42,778 bases of DNA from a virus (Duplodnaviria > Heunggongvirae > Uroviricota > Caudoviricetes): positions 1 through 42,778 of IMG/VR virus record IMGVR_UViG_2541047878_000002; one strand, 5' to 3'. This document shows positions 16,683 to 41,539 of the stretch, piece after piece. Every line of letters begins with the position of its first letter. Position 1 is the first letter of the stretch. The notes under the pieces are model-generated. The model searched no databases, was not told the DNA's origin, and saw only the letters and a program-made list of their open reading frames with translations. Both the position numbers and the translations under genes were made by a program.

Positions 16683-16867
16683 ACGCCACAATTCAAACGA
16701 TACCAGAGCTTCTTATCCAGACACGAGGCAATCAGACCGAAGTGGCGAGGATGCTTTCCTGCGCAAGAGGAACAGTGCTCAAGTACAACCGAGACAGCAA
16801 AGGTGAGCGTCACATAATAGTTAACGGCGTCCTGATGGTAACGCCAGGAAAAAAGGGAAGGCGATGA
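16679..16867 (+). CDS. ninH: NinH-like protein
   Basis: 62 aa; …GNQTEVARMLSCARGTVLKY… resembles recalled lambda NinH (…GNQTEVARRLKCSRGTVRKY…). Confidence 0.65.
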   Translation: MNATIQTIPELLIQTRGNQTEVARMLSCARGTVLKYNRDSKGERHIIVNGVLMVTPGKKGRR

Positions 16868-17382
16868 GCATAAGAGAACTAAACCTCACCAAAGAACAGC
16901 ACGATTGGCTGAATGGCTGGCTTGAACTGTGGGGCGCATGGGTTTATTCAGGTCGCCTGGAAAAGCGTATGAGCAGCGTAATAGCGAAGTTCATGGAGAG
17001 CGTAGAGCCGGGAAGAGTTATGACAAGGCCAATGTGCAATGATGATGATGGAATGTTGATTTCTCAGGTCGTCGATTCCGTCATGTACATTGACAAGAAA
17101 GCCTTTGGCATCCTCCTCAGCTACTACGCTCATGGTTCATCTAAGCGAGCAATTGCATCCTACTATCACGCGACTGCAAAGCCACGCAAGATGTGTGGAC
17201 GTGGTGGCGAGGGATGGAGAAAACCTTCACTGGCAACCTGTAGAAACGAAATTGACGACATCCTGAAGGCGTCATTATTTGTTTTATACCAGCCAATGCA
17301 AAATGCTTTCAAAATGCGTAAACGTGTTGAGAAAGTTAAGCATGTTGCTGTTAAAAGCCTTGACATGCAATTAGCCATTTAG
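16864..17382 (+). CDS. Putative late-gene antiterminator Q
   Basis: 172-aa Cys-containing protein immediately upstream of a consensus late promoter and the lysis cassette; positional call, family not confirmed. Confidence 0.55.
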   Translation: MSIRELNLTKEQHDWLNGWLELWGAWVYSGRLEKRMSSVIAKFMESVEPGRVMTRPMCNDDDGMLISQVVDSVMYIDKKAFGILLSYYAHGSSKRAIASYYHATAKPRKMCGRGGEGWRKPSLATCRNEIDDILKASLFVLYQPMQNAFKMRKRVEKVKHVAVKSLDMQLAI

Positions 17383-17389
17383 CCATAAT
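17360..17389 (+). promoter_or_regulatory. Candidate late promoter pR'
   Basis: -35 TTGACA (17360-17365), 18-bp spacer, -10 CATAAT (17384-17389), overlapping the 3' end of the Q-like gene. Confidence 0.45.
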
Positions 17390-17403
17390 TAGAGGGTAAG
17401 CTG

Positions 17404-17441
17404 CCGTTAGTGACTCTTAAGTTGCAACGGTGGCTTTTTTT
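17404..17441 (+). terminator. Possible tR'-like terminator
   Basis: ccgtt…gttgcaac…aacgg pairing followed by ggc + T7 run (17435-17441); structure is imperfect. Confidence 0.3.
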
Positions 17442-17445
17442 ATTT

Positions 17446-17520
17446 GGGTCAGTCGTATAAAGGTCATTACGGAAGGCTGTTAACCTTCTTATCGTGGTTC
17501 GAGTCCACGCTGTCCCGCCA
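17446..17520 (+). tRNA. tRNA-like gene, anticodon GUU (Asn), CCA encoded
   Basis: hand-folded cloverleaf: acceptor GGGTCAG/CTGTCCC (one U-U mismatch), D-loop with GG, anticodon stem gaagg/ccttc with loop cuGUUaa, T-arm cgtgg-TTCGAGT-ccacg, discriminator G + CCA. Confidence 0.55.
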
Positions 17521-17525
17521 AACAT

Positions 17526-17601
17526 GCTGGTTTAGCTCCAATGGTAGAGCGGTCGCCTTGTAAGCGAATGGGTAGCGGTTCAAGTCCGTTAACCAGCACC
17601 A
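17526..17601 (+). tRNA. tRNA-like gene, anticodon UGU (Thr), CCA encoded
   Basis: hand-folded cloverleaf: acceptor GCTGGTT/AACCAGC (7/7), D-arm TAGCTCCAATGGTAGAGC, anticodon loop cuUGUaa, T-arm agcgg-TTCAAGT-ccgtt, discriminator A + CCA. Confidence 0.6.
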
Positions 17602-17718
17602 TAACTGAGCCGTAGCCACTGGCTATCATGAATTCCTCAGTGATAGTTACGCTGCGGCCTTCTTTTTCCCCTTCCTAATACAAGAACTACGCAATCCGTT
17701 ACTGGCGGAGGCGTTGCT

Positions 17719-17934
17719 ATGAAATCCATGGATAAGATAACAACGGGTGTCGCCTATGGCACCTCGGCAGGCAGTGCCGGGTACTGGTTTTTACAGTGGC
17801 TTGATCAGGTCAGTCCATCACAGTGGGCTGCTATTGGTGTGCTGGGAAGTCTGGTTCTGGGCTTCCTGACTTATCTGACAAATCTGTACTTCAAAATCAG
17901 AGAAGACAAGCGTAAGGCTGCGAGAGGTGAATAA
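17719..17934 (+). CDS. S: Pinholin, phage 21 S21 type (dual-start MKSM motif)
   Basis: 71 aa [63 protein letters not shown]… matches recalled S21. Confidence 0.85.
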
Positions 17935-18431
17935 TGTCGCCATCATTACGCAAGGCTGTTGCAGCTGCTATTGGTGGTGGGGCTATTGCCATAGCGTCTA
18001 TGCTCATCACTGGCCCAAGTGGTAACGATGGTCTGGAAGGTGTCAGTTACATACCATACAAAGATATCGTTGGCGTATGGACTGTATGTCACGGACACAC
18101 CGGAAAAGACATTATGCTCGGTAAAACGTATACCGAAGCAGAATGCAAAGCCCTCCTGAATAAAGACCTTGCCACTGTCGCCAGACAAATTAACCCGTAC
18201 ATCAAAGTCGATATACCGGAAACAACGCGCGGCGCTCTTTACTCATTCGTTTACAACGTGGGTGCTGGCAATTTCAGAACATCGACGCTTCTGCGCAAAA
18301 TCAACCAGGGCGATATCAAAGGCGCATGTGATCAGCTACGTCGCTGGACATACGCTGGCGGTAAGCAATGGAAAGGTCTGATGACTCGTCGTGAGATTGA
18401 GCGTGAAATCTGTTTGTGGGGTCAGCAATGA
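17934..18431 (+). CDS. R: SAR endolysin (lysozyme with N-terminal signal-anchor-release domain), R21 type
   Basis: 165 aa; Gly/Ala-rich weakly hydrophobic N-terminus [20 protein letters not shown] followed by a lysozyme-like domain. Confidence 0.85.
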
Positions 18432-18519
18432 ACATGATTTGCTTTTTCATGGCAGCGTTGCTCGCATTGAATGGCAACGATGCGTGGCCGTGGTTTCTGG
18501 CCGTGGGGGTGTTGATGTC

Positions 18520-18987
18520 ATGAGTCGGTTAACCGCGATTATCTCCGCTCTGGTTATCTGCATCATCGTTTGCCTGTCATGGGCTGTTAATCATTACCGT
18601 GATAACGCCATTACCTACAAAGCCCAGCGCGATAAAAAAGTCAGTGAGCTGAAGCAGGCGACTGCCACCATTACTGACATGCAGCAGCGCCAGCGTTCTG
18701 CTGATGCACTCGATGCTAAATACACGAAGGAGTTAGCTGATGCGAAAGCTGAAAATGATGCTCTTCGGCGCAGGCTTGATAATGGTGGTCGGGTGTTCGT
18801 CAAAGGAAAATGCCCTGTGCCATCCTCAGCCGAAACCTCCAGCGCCTCCGGCATGGGCAATGATGCCACCGTCGAACTCTCTCCAGTTGCTGGACGAAAC
18901 GTTCTCGGTATCCGGGACGGAATTATCCGCGACCAAACAGCACTGAGAACGCTTCAGGAATACATCAGGACGCAATGCCTTCGATGA
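18520..18987 (+). CDS. Rz: Rz i-spanin
   Basis: N-terminal TM helix then coiled-coil periplasmic domain; start at ATG 18520 within ORF-track entry 18391..18987. Confidence 0.75.
18740..18946 (+). CDS. Rz1: Rz1 o-spanin lipoprotein nested in the +1 frame of Rz
   Basis: 68 aa with signal peptide and lipobox (LIMVVGCSS), Pro-rich mature part, entirely embedded within Rz. Confidence 0.75.
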
Positions 18988-19161
18988 TAGCGATAATTTT
19001 ACTCATCATCCTTCACATCTGGCTCTGTAGACAGGATGGTGATCACTTCTGGAGTGAATCCAGATTAAACATCTCATTGCTGATGCTTGATATTGAGCAT
19101 CTGGCGCGCGGTAAGGGGCTGCGTTGAGATAAGAGCCAGTCATTACAAATACCAGGATTTA

Positions 19162-19186
19162 GCCTCGCATTTGCGGGGTTTTTTAT
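19162..19186 (+). terminator. Intrinsic terminator after the lysis cassette
   Basis: cctcgc-attt-gcgggg hairpin followed by TTTTTTAT. Confidence 0.4.
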
Positions 19187-19208
19187 TCCCAACTCCATAG
19201 GTAATTTT

Positions 19209-19688
19209 ATGACCCAGCATATTGGCGTAAAACTGATTAACGCCTTTCCGATGACGAGACAGGCATATAACGATTTTCGTGGCTGGCAGCTTCCTGCCGG
19301 AGAAAACGGCGAGGATGAAGGCTATCTGGTTGAATATCTGGATGGCGGAAAACCTAACACCGATCGCTTTGATGGCTACGTTAGCTGGAGTCCAAAAGAA
19401 GTATTCGAAAAGGCTTATCGTCCTGTATCAGGGCTAAGTTTCGGTCTGGCCATGGAAGCGTTAAAACAGGGAAAGAGTTTGCAGCGGGCAGGATGGAATG
19501 GGAAAGACCAGTTTGTTTATCTCGTGAAAGGGGAAAAATTAGCGTCTGCGTTGGGTTATGGCTTTGGCGAATATGTTGGCGAGCCAACTTTCAATGACAC
19601 GCTTGTATTGAAAAACTCACAGAACCGCCTTGCTACATGGGGTCCATCCATTGGCGACCTGATGGCTGAAGACTGGCAAATCATTTAA
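19209..19688 (+). CDS. Hypothetical protein (159 aa); C-terminal half possibly DUF2829-like
   Basis: ORF between lysis and packaging modules; C-terminal segment …FGLAMEALKQGKSLQRAGWNGKDQFVYLV…LATWGPSIGDLMAEDWQII; family link is tentative recollection. Confidence 0.5.
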   Translation: MTQHIGVKLINAFPMTRQAYNDFRGWQLPAGENGEDEGYLVEYLDGGKPNTDRFDGYVSWSPKEVFEKAYRPVSGLSFGLAMEALKQGKSLQRAGWNGKDQFVYLVKGEKLASALGYGFGEYVGEPTFNDTLVLKNSQNRLATWGPSIGDLMAEDWQII

Positions 19689-19990
19689 CCGTGTAGGCAT
19701 TACAAAGCCTATCTACGGGTGGGCTTGATAATGAAACCGGAATTTATTCTTGGCAACCAGTTACGGCAGTACCACGAAGCAACCCAAGCCAGTAAGTGGG
19801 GAAATAACACTGGCAGCCACTGAAAGATGAACCTCCTGCCTTATGGCAAAAAAGATTCTTTGTGGTGGCGGACTGATGGAAAGACATCGGTTATTGCAGA
19901 GGCCATTCAATGAATGGTCTCGACAATGGCTTATACCATACACGGGATAACTTAACTGATATCCCTTTCAACGGATAAACGGAGCCAACA

Positions 19991-20233
19991 ATGGCAGAGA
20001 TTATTCCCATGACTGAAGAACAGAAATTCCAGTTAGAGATTTACAAACTGGTCATGAACCAGAACGCAGCTGCAGAGGAAGCATTTCAGTTCATTGGCAC
20101 TGACGAACTGAAGCTTGAGCTATTCAAAATTCACTTCCAGTCAGGCGGCGCTAATTCGGATATCACGACCCGCACTATCGAAGCGGTGCGTAAATCGAAG
20201 GAAGCGTTAGACCTGTTCACCACCGGAGCATGA
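19991..20233 (+). CDS. Hypothetical protein upstream of terminase
   Basis: 80-aa ORF with GGAG SD. Confidence 0.45.
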   Translation: MAEIIPMTEEQKFQLEIYKLVMNQNAAAEEAFQFIGTDELKLELFKIHFQSGGANSDITTRTIEAVRKSKEALDLFTTGA

Positions 20234-20262
20234 TGCTCAACCTGAAATAACAACTAAGTGAG

Positions 20263-20757
20263 ATGAATATGGCAGCACCAAAGGGCAACCGATTTTGGGA
20301 GGCCCGCAGTAGTCATGGGCGAAATCCTAAATTCGAATCGCCTGAGGCGCTGTGGGCTGCTTGTTGTGAATACTTCGAGTGGGTGGAAGCTAACCCGCTA
20401 TGGGAGATGAAGGCGTTCTCGTATCAGGGTGAAGTGATACAAGAGCCTATCGCCAAGATGCGAGCGATGACCATTACCGGACTCACTCTGTTCATTGATG
20501 TGACGCTTGAAACATGGCGCACATATCGCCTGCGAGAAGATTTATCTGAAGTCGTTACGCGAGCAGAGCAGGTCATCTACGATCAGAAATTCTCTGGCGC
20601 AGCCGCTGACCTTCTCAACGCTAACATCATCGCCCGTGATTTGGGCCTCAAAGAGCAGTCGCAAGTTGAAGACGTGACACCTGATAAGGGAGATCGCGAT
20701 AAGCGGCGCTCTCGTATCAAGGAGCTATTCAACCGTGGAACTGGACGCGATTCTTGA
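20263..20757 (+). CDS. Terminase small subunit, P22 gp3 type
   Basis: matches recalled P22 gp3 ([47 protein letters not shown]…); likely true start is the ATG at 20269; contains the pac site. Confidence 0.85.
20536..20557 (+). other. Candidate P22-type pac site within the terS gene
   Basis: GAAGATTTATCTGAAGTCGTTA matches my recollection of the 22-bp P22 pac sequence. Confidence 0.5.
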
Positions 20758-22234
20758 TAACCTGAGCGACGAAGAGCAAATCGAATTGCTCGAGCTACTC
20801 GAAGAAGAAGAGAGCTACCGGAACACACACCTGCTATATGAATTTACGCCATACAGCAAACAGCGTGAGTTCATCGACGCCGGGCATGACTATCCAGAGC
20901 GCTGTTTTATGGCTGGTAACCAGCTTGGTAAGTCATTTACTGGTGCTGCTGAAGTCGCGTTTCACCTTACCGGGCGTTATCCGGGCACAAAAGGCTATCC
21001 TGCTGATGGTAAATATGGCGGGGAGTGGAAAGGTAAGCGTTTCTATGAGCCTGTTGTCTTCTGGATTGGCGGCGAGACAAACGAGACGGTAACCAAAACG
21101 ACTCAACGCATCCTGTGCGGTCGTATTGAAGAGAATGATGAACCGGGCTACGGTTCAATACCGAAAGAGGACATCATTAGCTGGAAGAAGTCTCCTTTCT
21201 TTCCGAACCTTGTTGATCATCTTCTGGTTAAGCATCACACGGTTGATGGCGTTGAAGATGGCATTTCAATCTGCTACTTCAAGCCATACTCGCAAGGCCG
21301 TGCTCGCTGGCAGGGTGACACAATCCACGGCGTGTGGTTTGACGAAGAGCCACCATACAGCATTTATGGCGAAGGTCTTACCCGTACCAACAAATACGGG
21401 CAATTCTCAATTCTGACGTTTACCCCGCTGATGGGGATGTCTGACGTTGTTACCAAGTTCCTGAAGAATCCCAGCAAGTCGCAGAAAGTGGTCAACATGA
21501 CCATCTATGACGCTGAGCACTACACCGACGAGCAGAAAGAGCAAATCATCGCATCCTATCCTGAGCATGAGAGAGAGGCGCGTGCTCGCGGTATTCCTAC
21601 GATGGGTAGCGGGCGAATCTTCCAGATACCGGAAGAGACGATTAAGTGTCAGCCGTTTGAGTGTCCTGATCACTTCTACGTAATTGGCGGGATGGATTTC
21701 GGATGGGATCACCCGCAGGCGCAGGTTCAGCTTTGGTGGGATAAGGACGCAGACACAATCTACGTTTCACGCGTGTGGAAGGCGAAAGAAAAAACAGCCG
21801 TTCAGGCGTGGGGAGCCGTTAAATCATGGGCGCATAAAGTGCCAACCGCATGGCCTCATGACGGAAACCAGCATGAGAAGGGCGGCGGTGAGCAGCTCAA
21901 AGGGCAGTATGCAGATGCTGGATTTATGATGTTGCAGGAGCATGCGACATGGCCTGATGGCGGTAATGCTGTTGAGCCTGGAATCACTGAATTGCGAGAC
22001 ATGATGCTCGACGGTCGCTTCAAAGTATTCAACACCTGTGAGCCATTCTTTGAGGAGTTCCGTCTCTATCACCGTGATGAAAACGGGAAAATCGTCAAGC
22101 TTAACGACGACGTGCTCTCCGCCGTTCGCTATGCATACATGATGCGCCGCTTCGCCAAAATGATGCGCGACATCAAAAAACCAAAAGAGAAAAAGATACC
22201 AGCCCCAATCAGGCCCATCGCACGGAGAACTTAA
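20735..22234 (+). CDS. Terminase large subunit, P22 gp2 type
   Basis: 499 aa, GTG start overlapping terS end; N-terminus [26 protein letters not shown]… as recalled for P22 gp2. Confidence 0.9.
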
Positions 22235-40468: not shown

Positions 40469-40486
40469 TTGCAATAAATGCAGTAT

Positions 40487-40516
40487 ATCCCGCATAAAAA
40501 TGCGGGATTGTTTTTA
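40487..40516 (+). terminator. Intrinsic terminator after the tailspike
   Basis: atcccgca-taaaaa-tgcgggat hairpin followed by TGTTTTTA. Confidence 0.55.
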
Positions 40517-40775
40517 TCTGGTGTATTTATGAATTTTAAGTAAATTTTAGTATTGATTACTGCATCGCAGTTAAAGCCTCATTACCTATGAGGCAAAACT
40601 GAGACACACAAGGCTTTGCACTGGATTGCAAGGCTTTGTGCTATCTGAGATATAGCAATGTTGGTTGCTCCACCTTTTCATCAAGCCAGTCCGCCCACCA
40701 CTGCATCATTTCTCTGCGCTTATCGAGATACTGAGCATGGTTGTAAATTCAACTAACCCAGTGAGTTGACAAAAA

Positions 40776-40812
40776 ATTAGCGCAAGAAGAAAAAAAATCA
40801 CCTTGCGCTAAT
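40776..40812. promoter_or_regulatory. sib/tI-like hairpin of the lambda b-region (int retroregulator), separated from int in the prophage
   Basis: perfect 11-bp inverted repeat attagcgcaag…cttgcgctaat with 15-nt A-rich loop, ~150 bp left of the att core, matching recalled lambda sib-region sequence. Confidence 0.45.
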
Positions 40813-40957
40813 GCTCTGTTACAGGTCACTAATACCATCTAAGTAGTTGATTCATAGTGACTGCACATGCTGTGTTTTGCAGTATTATGTAGTCTATTAT
40901 TTAGACCAAAACCATCATAACACATTGATATTGATGATTTTTCTTGTTTCTCATTCA

Positions 40958-40972
40958 GCTTTTTTATACTAA
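40958..40972. repeat. attR core (GCTTTTTTATACTAA) preceded by lambda-like P arm
   Basis: identical to attL core; upstream 40815-40957 matches the recalled lambda P arm (tctgttacaggtcactaataccatctaagtagttgattcatagtgactgca…); downstream acttgagcg is the host B' arm. Confidence 0.9.
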
Positions 40973-41062: not shown

Positions 41063-41539
41063 TTAACTAAACATCGCAGTAATCGAGGCACTCGCCAGAG
41101 AGTGAAAATGAACGTTAAACCCGACCATCGCGCCGCTGGCACCTTCATCGACATCAATACGTTCTACATCCAGCGCGTGAACGGTAAAAATGTAGCGATG
41201 GGTTTCGCCTTTCGGCGGCGCTGCGCCATCGTACCCGGTTTTACCAAAGTCGGTACGCGTCTGCAAAACGCCGTCTGGCATAGCTACCAGACCAGAGCCA
41301 AACCCTTGCGGTAATACGCGGGTATCAGCGGGTAAATTAACAACTACCCAGTGCCACCAGCCGGAGCCGGTTGGCGCATCCGGGTCATAGCAGGTGACAA
41401 CAAAACTTTTCGTTCCCACAGGAACATCATCCCACGCCAGATGCGGTGAAATATTATCGCCATCGTAACCCATGCCGTTAAAGACATGACGATGCGGCAG
41501 CTTATCGCCATCGCGCAGATCGTTACTGATGAGTTTCAT
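41063..41539 (-). CDS. ybhB: YbhB, PEBP/RKIP-family protein (host gene flanking attB)
   Basis: 158 aa MKLISNDLRDGDKLPHRHVF… PEBP-like; right of attR as in E. coli. Confidence 0.85.
   Translation of the reverse strand: MKLISNDLRDGDKLPHRHVFNGMGYDGDNISPHLAWDDVPVGTKSFVVTCYDPDAPTGSGWWHWVVVNLPADTRVLPQGFGSGLVAMPDGVLQTRTDFGKTGYDGAAPPKGETHRYIFTVHALDVERIDVDEGASGAMVGFNVHFHSLASASITAMFS

Follow-up and report, generated by a model that had tools for sequence, protein, structure and literature searches.

In IMG/VR record IMGVR_UViG_2541047878_000002, a 42,778-nucleotide (nt) stretch of viral DNA that is referred to below, in its whole length, as the window, the late genes of a prophage are interrupted just ahead of the packaging genes by an interval in which no gene is apparent. 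Does this gap (19689-19990) hold a small gene, a promoter or an RNA, or is it an empty place between genes? We conclude with good confidence that it is a real non-coding, modular spacer of the Q-dependent late operon at the lysis-packaging junction, and with equally good confidence that it represents the empty state of an accessory-gene (moron) hot spot already known at this junction. Within it lie two members of a covarying, strand-specific family of hairpins, a finding in which our confidence is likewise good.

A non-coding, modular spacer

As read from the sequence, the gap is bounded upstream by a TAA stop codon (19686-19688) and downstream by the ATG at 19991 of orf80, a gene of 80 amino acids (aa); it spans 302 nt between a Tad2-like gene (19209-19688) and orf80 (family DUF2560, 19991-20233). 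The longest open reading frame (ORF) inside it has 35 aa on the + strand (19843-19950) and 60 aa, from a GTG start, on the - strand (19761-19943), and we conclude that the gap encodes no protein. When ORF-free stretches were defined by the absence of ORFs of at least 75 aa on either strand, just two of at least 120 nt were found in the late region from the lysis genes to the tailspike gene, 18988-19208 and 19689-19990, and both flank a single gene, the Tad2-like one. The preliminary description of the locus, as a non-coding interval of ~300 bp in an otherwise tightly packed late region, is therefore accurate on both counts. It was also right to see RNA structure as the interesting content: folding of the whole gap departs strongly from that of shuffled sequences (z = -5.06 on the + strand, -3.98 on the - strand), and this signal is due to two hairpins, HP-A and HP-B. 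The parts of the gap and of its downstream border are as follows.

19698-19733, + strand: hairpin HP-A (covariance model R1, 58.6 bits, E = 5.7e-13)
19734-19755, + strand: variable linker, with an unrelated segment of ~67 bp in its place in 31 of 127 loci
19756-19889, + strand: conserved 134-nt leader, with no conserved ORF and a folding z of about -1 on both strands
19892-19928, + strand: hairpin HP-B (R1, 55.1 bits, E = 4.8e-12)
19929-19979, + strand: 3' module GCTTATACC..GGGATAACTTAACTGATATCCCTTT(T/C)AACGGATAAA, nearly invariant, the most widespread piece, reaching the ribosome-binding site of orf80
19981-19993, + strand: Shine-Dalgarno sequence GGAG (19981-19984) with the orf80 start codon ATG at 19991, read directly
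19991-20233, + strand: orf80, 80 aa, DUF2560, homologue of P22 orf80 (Pfam E = 1.1e-43)
19991-20067, + strand: first 77 nt of orf80, belonging to the same low-diversity block as the gap and kept by HK97-type phages without the rest of orf80

Two members of a covarying hairpin family

Members of the family share a 5-bp lower stem in which (C/U)AUU(A/G) pairs with (U/C)AAUG, an invariant 2x2 internal loop of CA and GA, a variable upper stem of 9-10 bp and an apical loop of 3-7 nt. HP-A is built from the lower stem CAUUA/UAAUG, the CA/GA loop, a 9-bp upper stem and a UACG loop; it opens with 9 nt that form the right copy of a direct repeat, CATTACAAA (see below), and closes with the 3 nt of the ATG at 19731. 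HP-B has the lower stem UAUUG/CAAUG, the CA/GA loop and a 10-bp upper stem. The folding free energy (dG) of HP-A is -18.1 (z -6.34) on the + strand and -9.4 (z -2.68) on the - strand; that of HP-B is -21.4 (z -6.14) on the + strand and -14.1 on the - strand.

The preliminary description had proposed covariation across homologous prophages as a check, and the hairpins do covary. Among 44 distinct variants, 98.4% of 616 pair cells are standard-paired, and sliding the partner by 1-3 columns lowers pairing to 33.5-54%. Both sides have changed in 8 of the 14 pairs, as in an A-U to G-C replacement at the top of the lower stem and in an upper-stem pair that occurs as CG, GC, GU and AU. The observed covariation score was reached in none of 500 shuffles, a result repeated on the covariance-model hits. 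Hairpin lineages with completely different upper-stem sequences retain the pairing, the CA/GA loop and the flanks. Pairing is also strand-specific: read on the + strand, 98.4% of cells are paired and 36 of 44 variants fully so, versus 84.9% of cells and 2 of 44 variants on the - strand, the weaker pairing there arising because 87 cells are G.U pairs. Consistently, the common HP-B polymorphisms at 19902 (G/A) and 19914 (A/G) swap G.U and A-U and keep the pairing on the + strand only.

With the covariance model, significant hits in the window numbered exactly two, each of them in the gap. In 100 related loci it gave 166 hits, 1-3 in each, and nearly all were known copies of the junction hairpins, position and orientation not being tabulated for every one of the 166; two weak 25-bit hits (in loci L027 and L058) lie away from the junction hairpins. 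Rfam had no match to the gap at E <= 1; a scan by E-value over 17000-21000 and one at the gathering threshold over the whole window returned two tRNAs only. A literature search by sequence strings found nothing relevant: two longer strings were unmatched in the papers listed and a 10-mer occurred only in unrelated ones. The family is thus absent from Rfam and without a description that we found in the searchable literature; it is apparently undescribed. The locus is more organised than the preliminary description supposed, yet as the empty slot of a moron hot spot that has been published it is ordinary, and it stays within known biology of moron slots and intercistronic stem-loops. The novelty lies in the hairpin family, a candidate for a new cis-acting RNA motif in the late operons of lambdoid phages, and in a fixed grammar of its copies that surrounds cargo of the anti-defence type.

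This grammar emerged when 296 hairpin copies were classified. Type A stands within 40 nt after the end of a long open frame in 100 of 128 copies. Type B, to which the second copy of the window belongs, follows a long ORF in 0 of 99 copies and is always found behind the 134-nt leader; since it always comes after the leader with no gene between, it marks an empty slot. A third type, C, follows gene 66 in Sf6 and is annotated as a "terminator" in phage Ayreon. Downstream of types B and C, the 3' module nearly always comes next. In prophages of the Shiga-toxin (Stx)-type/O157 group (loci L166 and L167, 1980-2700), HP-A is joined directly to the 3' module and ~400 bp of non-coding DNA follow; next comes a minus-strand YlcI/YnfO (DUF3950) gene, before the HNH and terminase genes, an opposite-strand moron at the place of P22 pid.

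The 3' module and the leader

Copies of the 3' module follow the form GCTTATACC...GGGATAACTTAACTGATATCCCTTTTAACGGATAAA. Among the E. coli genome matches listed, most of the rows with lower coverage match through the module alone, and the module adjoins the first packaging-module gene in many phage types. It stops exactly where the downstream context begins, whether this is orf80 with its Shine-Dalgarno sequence and ATG, another gene's ribosome-binding site or unrelated O157/Stx prophage sequence. A small hairpin (19944-19965) lies within it, and the region folds with z of -2.2 on the + strand and -3.0 on the - strand. The loop of this hairpin is as conserved as its stem, which suggests sequence-specific recognition rather than simple structure. 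Most copies of the module also contain, at 19952-19977, a 10-nt direct repeat with a period of 15 nt, TTAAC(T/G)GATA.

The minus strand of the leader carries, where the leader varies most, a terminator-like hairpin (19853-19832, UUUUUUGCC-AUAA-GGCAGGAGG). Three sites of this kind were found against 1.4 expected; the hairpin could stop antisense transcripts coming from opposite-strand morons, or it could be due to chance.

The empty state of an accessory-gene hot spot

The positions at which homology to the window stops were mapped in 224 related loci from IMG/VR and GenBank. The breakpoints cluster at module edges.

19150: 17 breakpoints
19185-19190: 65
19690-19700: 120, with about 113 near 19695-19700
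19735-19765: 151
19890-19895: 87
19915-19920: 67
19980: 58
20230-20235: 133

Between conserved flanks, relatives carry inserts of 129-733 bp at five recurrent points, with Tad2-like, gp49/66, Rha, KilA-N, T5orf172, DUF551, pid and YnfO genes as cargo. The Rha, KilA-N, T5orf172 and Tad2-like genes of relatives lie between 19186 and either 19698 or 19761, and in some relatives the ~67-bp segment replaces 19747-19755. Inserts of 129-413 bp occupy 19888-19893, at the 3' end of the leader (19888|19890), in 34 loci, and in Sf6 the insert at this point is gene 66 (family Phage_gp49_66). The window aligns with P22 over 19763-19949 and 19977-20235; between 19949 and 19977, inside the 3' module, P22 has a 630-bp insert with pid on the opposite strand. 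The shortest Rz-to-orf80 regions, ~290 bp without an accessory gene, retain the whole element. Since the gap of the window holds no gene, both of its internal slots (19889 and 19949-19977) are empty, and the occupied slot is the upstream one with the Tad2-like gene.

19209-19688, + strand: Tad2-like (Thoeris anti-defence 2-like) gene, PF11195 (Pfam E = 3.7e-21), absent from many related loci
19141-19149 (left) and 19698-19706 (right), + strand: CATTACAAA, 9-bp direct repeat bracketing the Tad2-like cassette, read directly
19161-19190, + strand: canonical intrinsic terminator-like hairpin with a T-run, called by the terminator scan (dG -14 kcal/mol, z -2.65)

In 15 IMG/VR loci the junction is uninterrupted: there is a single copy of CATTACAAA, and 19149 runs straight into 19698. 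Phage Ayreon has a terminator unit of the 19161-19190 type without a Tad2-like gene. Because this terminator precedes the Tad2-like gene in the window, the gene would be expressed mainly by Q-modified late transcription.

Passages of two studies of P22 place pid in the late region orf25-orf80, where related phages have no insert or a different one (Cenens 2013, PMC3573128; Wolput 2022, PMC8835761), and its promoter, 5' untranslated region and terminator are mapped in the latter. The pid moron occupies the same genomic site as the gap, with the difference that P22 has pid and the slot of the window is empty; the passages concerned describe the locus without mention of the flanking hairpins and the 3' module. 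These two kinds of element bracket changing accessory genes that include known or suspected anti-defence families (Tad2-like, gp49/66), and such conserved non-coding anchors could serve to harvest unknown cargo genes from prophages.

Conservation and spread

The preliminary description had allowed that the region might lack conservation. Instead, DNA of the gap is 92-97% identical in 203-207 phage records. Its carriers include P22-like podoviruses (Kapi1, HZ41, SEN22, Sf6, ST64T and P22), HK97-like siphoviruses (HK97, HK022 and mEp234) and, in part, Stx phages. Parts of the gap are present in 2434 of 5426 complete E. coli genomes (~45%), in several contexts and with several copies possible per genome, at up to five places; in most of the sampled E. 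coli rows, RefSeq annotation (by PGAP) has no gene under the match. At an identity of at least 89% the element is confined to phages of Escherichia, Salmonella and Shigella. A scan of species-representative genomes returned no more divergent homologues, only copies in E. coli and Salmonella and, with the same sequence at 91-98% identity, in contigs of metagenome-assembled genomes. As for covariation outside the hairpins, RNAalifold on 56 sequences found singleton changes only. The E. coli K-12 prophages DLP12 and Qin have no copy of the element. In Salmonella arizonae (L178, 5652-5759), a decayed 108-bp copy of the leader with 89% identity adjoins unrelated sequence. Chance 19-23-mers were all that the species-representative scan gave in Pseudomonas; near-exact matches of 22-28 nt to 19866-19895 in several species of that genus (L172, L174, L176, L179 and L186) probably reflect a single chance match at a conserved locus.

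Nucleotide diversity in the gap is 0.021, versus 0.105-0.134 (5-6x higher) at third codon positions of orf80 downstream of 20067. The segment 19786-20067 behaves as a single low-diversity mosaic block, and HK97-type phages share it only to about 20067. In HK97 itself (L004, 1800-1937), the 77 nt of orf80 are fused to unrelated sequence; the resulting 45-aa ORF, overlapping the beginning of the HNH endonuclease gene gp74, could be a relic or a translational-coupling leader.

Hairpins as possible signals of the late mRNA

The reading that we favour, at a probability of roughly 0.55, is that the gap is the spacer of an empty accessory-gene slot, with the hairpins as late-mRNA signals and exchange homology. 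Of its parts, a role of the hairpins as signals for processing or stability between cistrons of the late mRNA is put tentatively, from comparison with known systems, at roughly one in three. The hairpins would act in cis within the late polycistronic mRNA. At RNase III sites of phage T7, which their geometry resembles, the upstream cistron keeps a protective 3' hairpin after cleavage. The hairpins and the 3' module are common to many phages and would thereby supply 40-95 bp of homology for cassette exchange by phage recombinases, and exchange through such shared sequences would account for the breakpoint pattern. The argument for function is made from the compensatory change between hairpin lineages, the persistence of the element at junctions that have no gene and its broad distribution.

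The T7 early-mRNA RNase III hairpins (R1.1 type) are generally known to lie between cistrons of a long phage operon, as do the hairpins of the gap, and both combine an upper stem of ~10 bp, an internal loop and a lower stem, with sequence that varies and structure that is kept. In contrast to the T7 hairpins, those of the gap have a shorter helix (16-19 bp equivalents) and a symmetric 2x2 CA/GA loop, and they belong to a Q-antiterminated lambdoid operon; the likeness is one of geometry. Intrinsic terminators and repetitive extragenic palindromic (REP) stem-loops resemble the hairpins of the gap as stable stem-loops directly after the stop codons of operon genes. However, the latter have no U-tract, their flanks pair as a lower stem, and they lack the REP consensus. 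A comparison by eye with REP elements (GTAG), IS200/IS605 ends, integration host factor (IHF) sites and boxA gave partial matches only.

Several points weigh against our favoured reading. The case for an RNase III or stabiliser role is a geometric one (5-7 + 2 + 9-10 bp equivalents, with the internal loop 9-10 bp from the apical loop), which is suggestive only, and the helix, at 16-19 bp equivalents in total, is on the short side for RNase III. Without a U-tract the hairpins are not classical terminators, and their benefit is therefore unproven. The variants were gathered with a pattern that fixed the flanks and not the upper stem, and they amount to about six lineages, so that independent compensatory events are few. 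G.T pairs are tolerated in folded single-stranded DNA, hence the strand asymmetry is no proof of a role as RNA. Structure explains neither the leader, which is conserved with a folding z of about -1, nor the 3' module, in which 25 variants among ~190 copies include no compensatory change. Finally, third positions in the first 77 nt of orf80 (19991-20067) have a diversity of 0.017-0.04 and are as uniform as the gap. Because low diversity thus runs on into orf80, the diversity test cannot separate purifying selection from recent spread, and if a single mosaic block had spread recently, the conservation could be explained with no selection at individual sites.

Alternative explanations

This last point leads to the most serious alternative, which we regard as unlikely: the gap would be a neutral leftover of a young mosaic block (about 19786-20067) that recently spread among E. 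coli and Salmonella phages, its hairpins being functionless remnants of terminators or of the 3' ends of lost genes. The extension of the low-diversity block across the orf80 start, the truncated orf80 5' end kept by HK97, the decayed fragment in the S. arizonae genome and the restriction of the element to phages of three genera at high identity all agree with such a history. It fits poorly, however, with the retention of the full ~290-bp element in the shortest gene-free junctions, with the finding of its parts, in several contexts, in 45% of the complete E. coli genomes, and above all with the hairpins, where pairing, the CA/GA loop and the flanks are kept across unlike upper stems, a pattern that needs selection on structure.

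Could that selection act on DNA instead of RNA? The hairpins might belong to a DNA-level site of cassette exchange, as folded single-stranded or duplex DNA resembling integron attC sites or lambdoid boundary sequences; we consider this improbable. Breakpoints do fall at hairpin edges, the 9-bp repeat CATTACAAA brackets the Tad2-like cassette and is present as one copy at the empty site, structure is conserved while stem sequence varies, and relaxed homologous recombination by lambdoid phage recombinases is documented in passages of earlier work (PMC2327257, PMC3945230). On the other hand, no dedicated recombinase is linked to the locus, Rha-type cassettes join elsewhere (19761-19763) without a hairpin, ordinary homologous recombination in any conserved flank gives the same breakpoint pattern, and the G.U(T) bias on the transcribed-sense strand fits RNA more simply.

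Neither of the two models for such a site matches fully. Like the units of the gap, attC sites bound gene cassettes and keep structure while sequence varies, but the gap has no integrase and no core-site signature, its cassettes sit in a phage late operon, and several junctions are without a hairpin. The concept of boundary sequences reportedly comes from the HK620 and Sf6 genome papers. These are short sequences common to otherwise unrelated neighbours and found at homology breakpoints, as are the units of the gap, which differ from them by structure, compensatory change and strand polarity and are not among the bsq features annotated in the examined stretch of the Sf6 record.

A bolder version, which we hold to be distinctly improbable, would make the hairpins and the 3' module dedicated cassette-boundary signals of an unrecognised exchange system for accessory and anti-defence genes in lambdoid late operons. 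One strand, folded as RNA or single-stranded DNA, would then be recognised for the capture or swapping of genes such as Tad2-like, gp49/66 and pid. If this were true, the conserved non-coding anchors would be a direct handle for finding new anti-defence genes.

The suggestion in the preliminary description that the gap might hold a non-coding RNA is upheld as far as RNA hairpins are concerned, which are strongly supported; a separate transcription unit has left no sign in the gap, and there is no Rfam match. We see little probability in a free-standing or processed small RNA (sRNA) of ~95 nt, for instance a trans-acting one derived from a 3' untranslated region, made up of a hairpin, single-stranded CUUAUACCCUACAC, the small hairpin and UUUU. 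Such an architecture would be like that of sRNAs of the Hfq type, the 3' module hardly varies in sequence, even in the loop, and a genome can hold several copies at up to five places. Its terminal hairpin, however, is weak (6 bp, a 10-nt loop and U4, which is UUUC in the window) and escaped the terminator scan, the + strand yielded no promoter, and Rfam is silent at E <= 1. In the parts of the transcriptome study of BTP1 (a P22-like prophage with the same region) that concern the lysogen, pid is highly expressed, and none of the non-coding RNAs with retrieved coordinates falls within the rha-orf80 interval (PMC7067206). The known prophage sRNAs AgvB, AsxR and Pas are encoded near pR' and not at the gap. 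As an sRNA gene in its own right, with its own promoter and terminator or of a known family, the gap was rejected, there being neither a + strand call in it nor an Rfam match; STnc100, near pR', and STnc6030, near the tailspike gene, are likewise at other loci.

A promoter for the packaging genes, another suggestion of the preliminary description, or an insulating terminator that keeps the terminase silent in lysogens, appears slightly less probable still. The gap lies directly upstream of the first packaging-module gene in many phage types, a canonical terminator does exist nearby at 19161-19190, and secondary promoters have been reported in the capsid cluster of BTP1 (PMC7067206). In contrast, the consensus promoter scan of 19000-20400 gave 2 sites against 1.8 expected, which is the chance level, and both are on the - strand; none was found on the + strand in the gap. 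As for insulation, the two hairpins have no U-tract and the 3' hairpin is weak; no rut-like stretch (C-rich and G-poor) was found. Two candidate termination mechanisms were set aside. An intrinsic terminator was not recognised in the gap, where HP-A is followed by AAACCGG and HP-B by GCUUAUACC, neither a U-tract, and the scan called 19161-19190 instead; Rho loading at a rut site was rejected for want of a C-rich, G-poor stretch.

The 30-aa ORF from ATG 19731 named in the preliminary description exists as described, as do a 28-aa ORF from 19827 and the 35-aa ORF from 19843; phage Dewey annotates two of these small ORFs, and several common polymorphisms in 19902-19938 sit on third positions of the 19843 frame. 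Yet the ATG at 19731 is the conserved last triplet of HP-A, where it pairs with CAU in the lower stem, and the length of the ORF is not conserved: among 127 HP-A copies it has 30 aa in only roughly 30% and 3, 9 or 21 aa in most others, and in Kapi1 and HK97 its frame is shifted by an indel of 1 nt. In the 19827 and 19843 ORFs the first 15-21 codons are constant, as they fall within the leader, but the C-termini differ in every insertion context, with no extension into a real gene except in ST64T, and each of the two ORFs suffers start loss, stop gain or frameshift in a few of 50 sequences. None of the three is found in homologues as an intact ORF of constant length, none has a Pfam match, PGAP annotates nothing there, and changes in HP-B that keep G.U pairing possible explain the third-position polymorphisms equally well. 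One or more small protein-coding genes in the gap are thus highly unlikely. In ST64T (L005, 1652-2008), a small deletion lets the 19843 frame run into a divergent allele of the 80-aa orf80 that has its own Shine-Dalgarno sequence and ATG, which probably explains the annotated "orf-118" (DUF2560 in some records).

Prophage context and minor observations

Our favoured reading of the gap, as an empty slot in a late operon, is set in a complete prophage of ~39.6 kb within the 42.8-kb window, in which a P22-like virion module is combined with a lambda-att integration module. The prophage also encodes a CI-like repressor and a tailspike with a P22 head-binding domain. The other features of the prophage that bear on the locus are these.

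1331-1345 and 40958-40972: lambda att core GCTTTTTTATACTAA, two exact copies that mark the prophage bounds
1419-2489, - strand: lambda-type integrase (Arm-DNA-bind_1 and Phage_integrase)
16864-17382: Q antiterminator gene, at the start of the late-operon order Q, lysis genes, gap, terS, terL, portal
17446-17601: tRNA-Asn(GTT) and tRNA-Thr(TGT), between the Q gene and the holin gene, inside the late-operon leader
17719-18987: lysis cassette of holin, endolysin and Rz/Rz1
from 20263: packaging genes, P22-type terS (GP3_package), terL and portal

Just outside the prophage lies a host gene of the PEBP family (41063-41539, - strand), read as YbhB-like. Following the tailspike gene, a 500-nt ORF-free stretch (40469-40968) forms the phage arm of the att site, and it contains a hairpin with a T-run directly after the tailspike stop codon.

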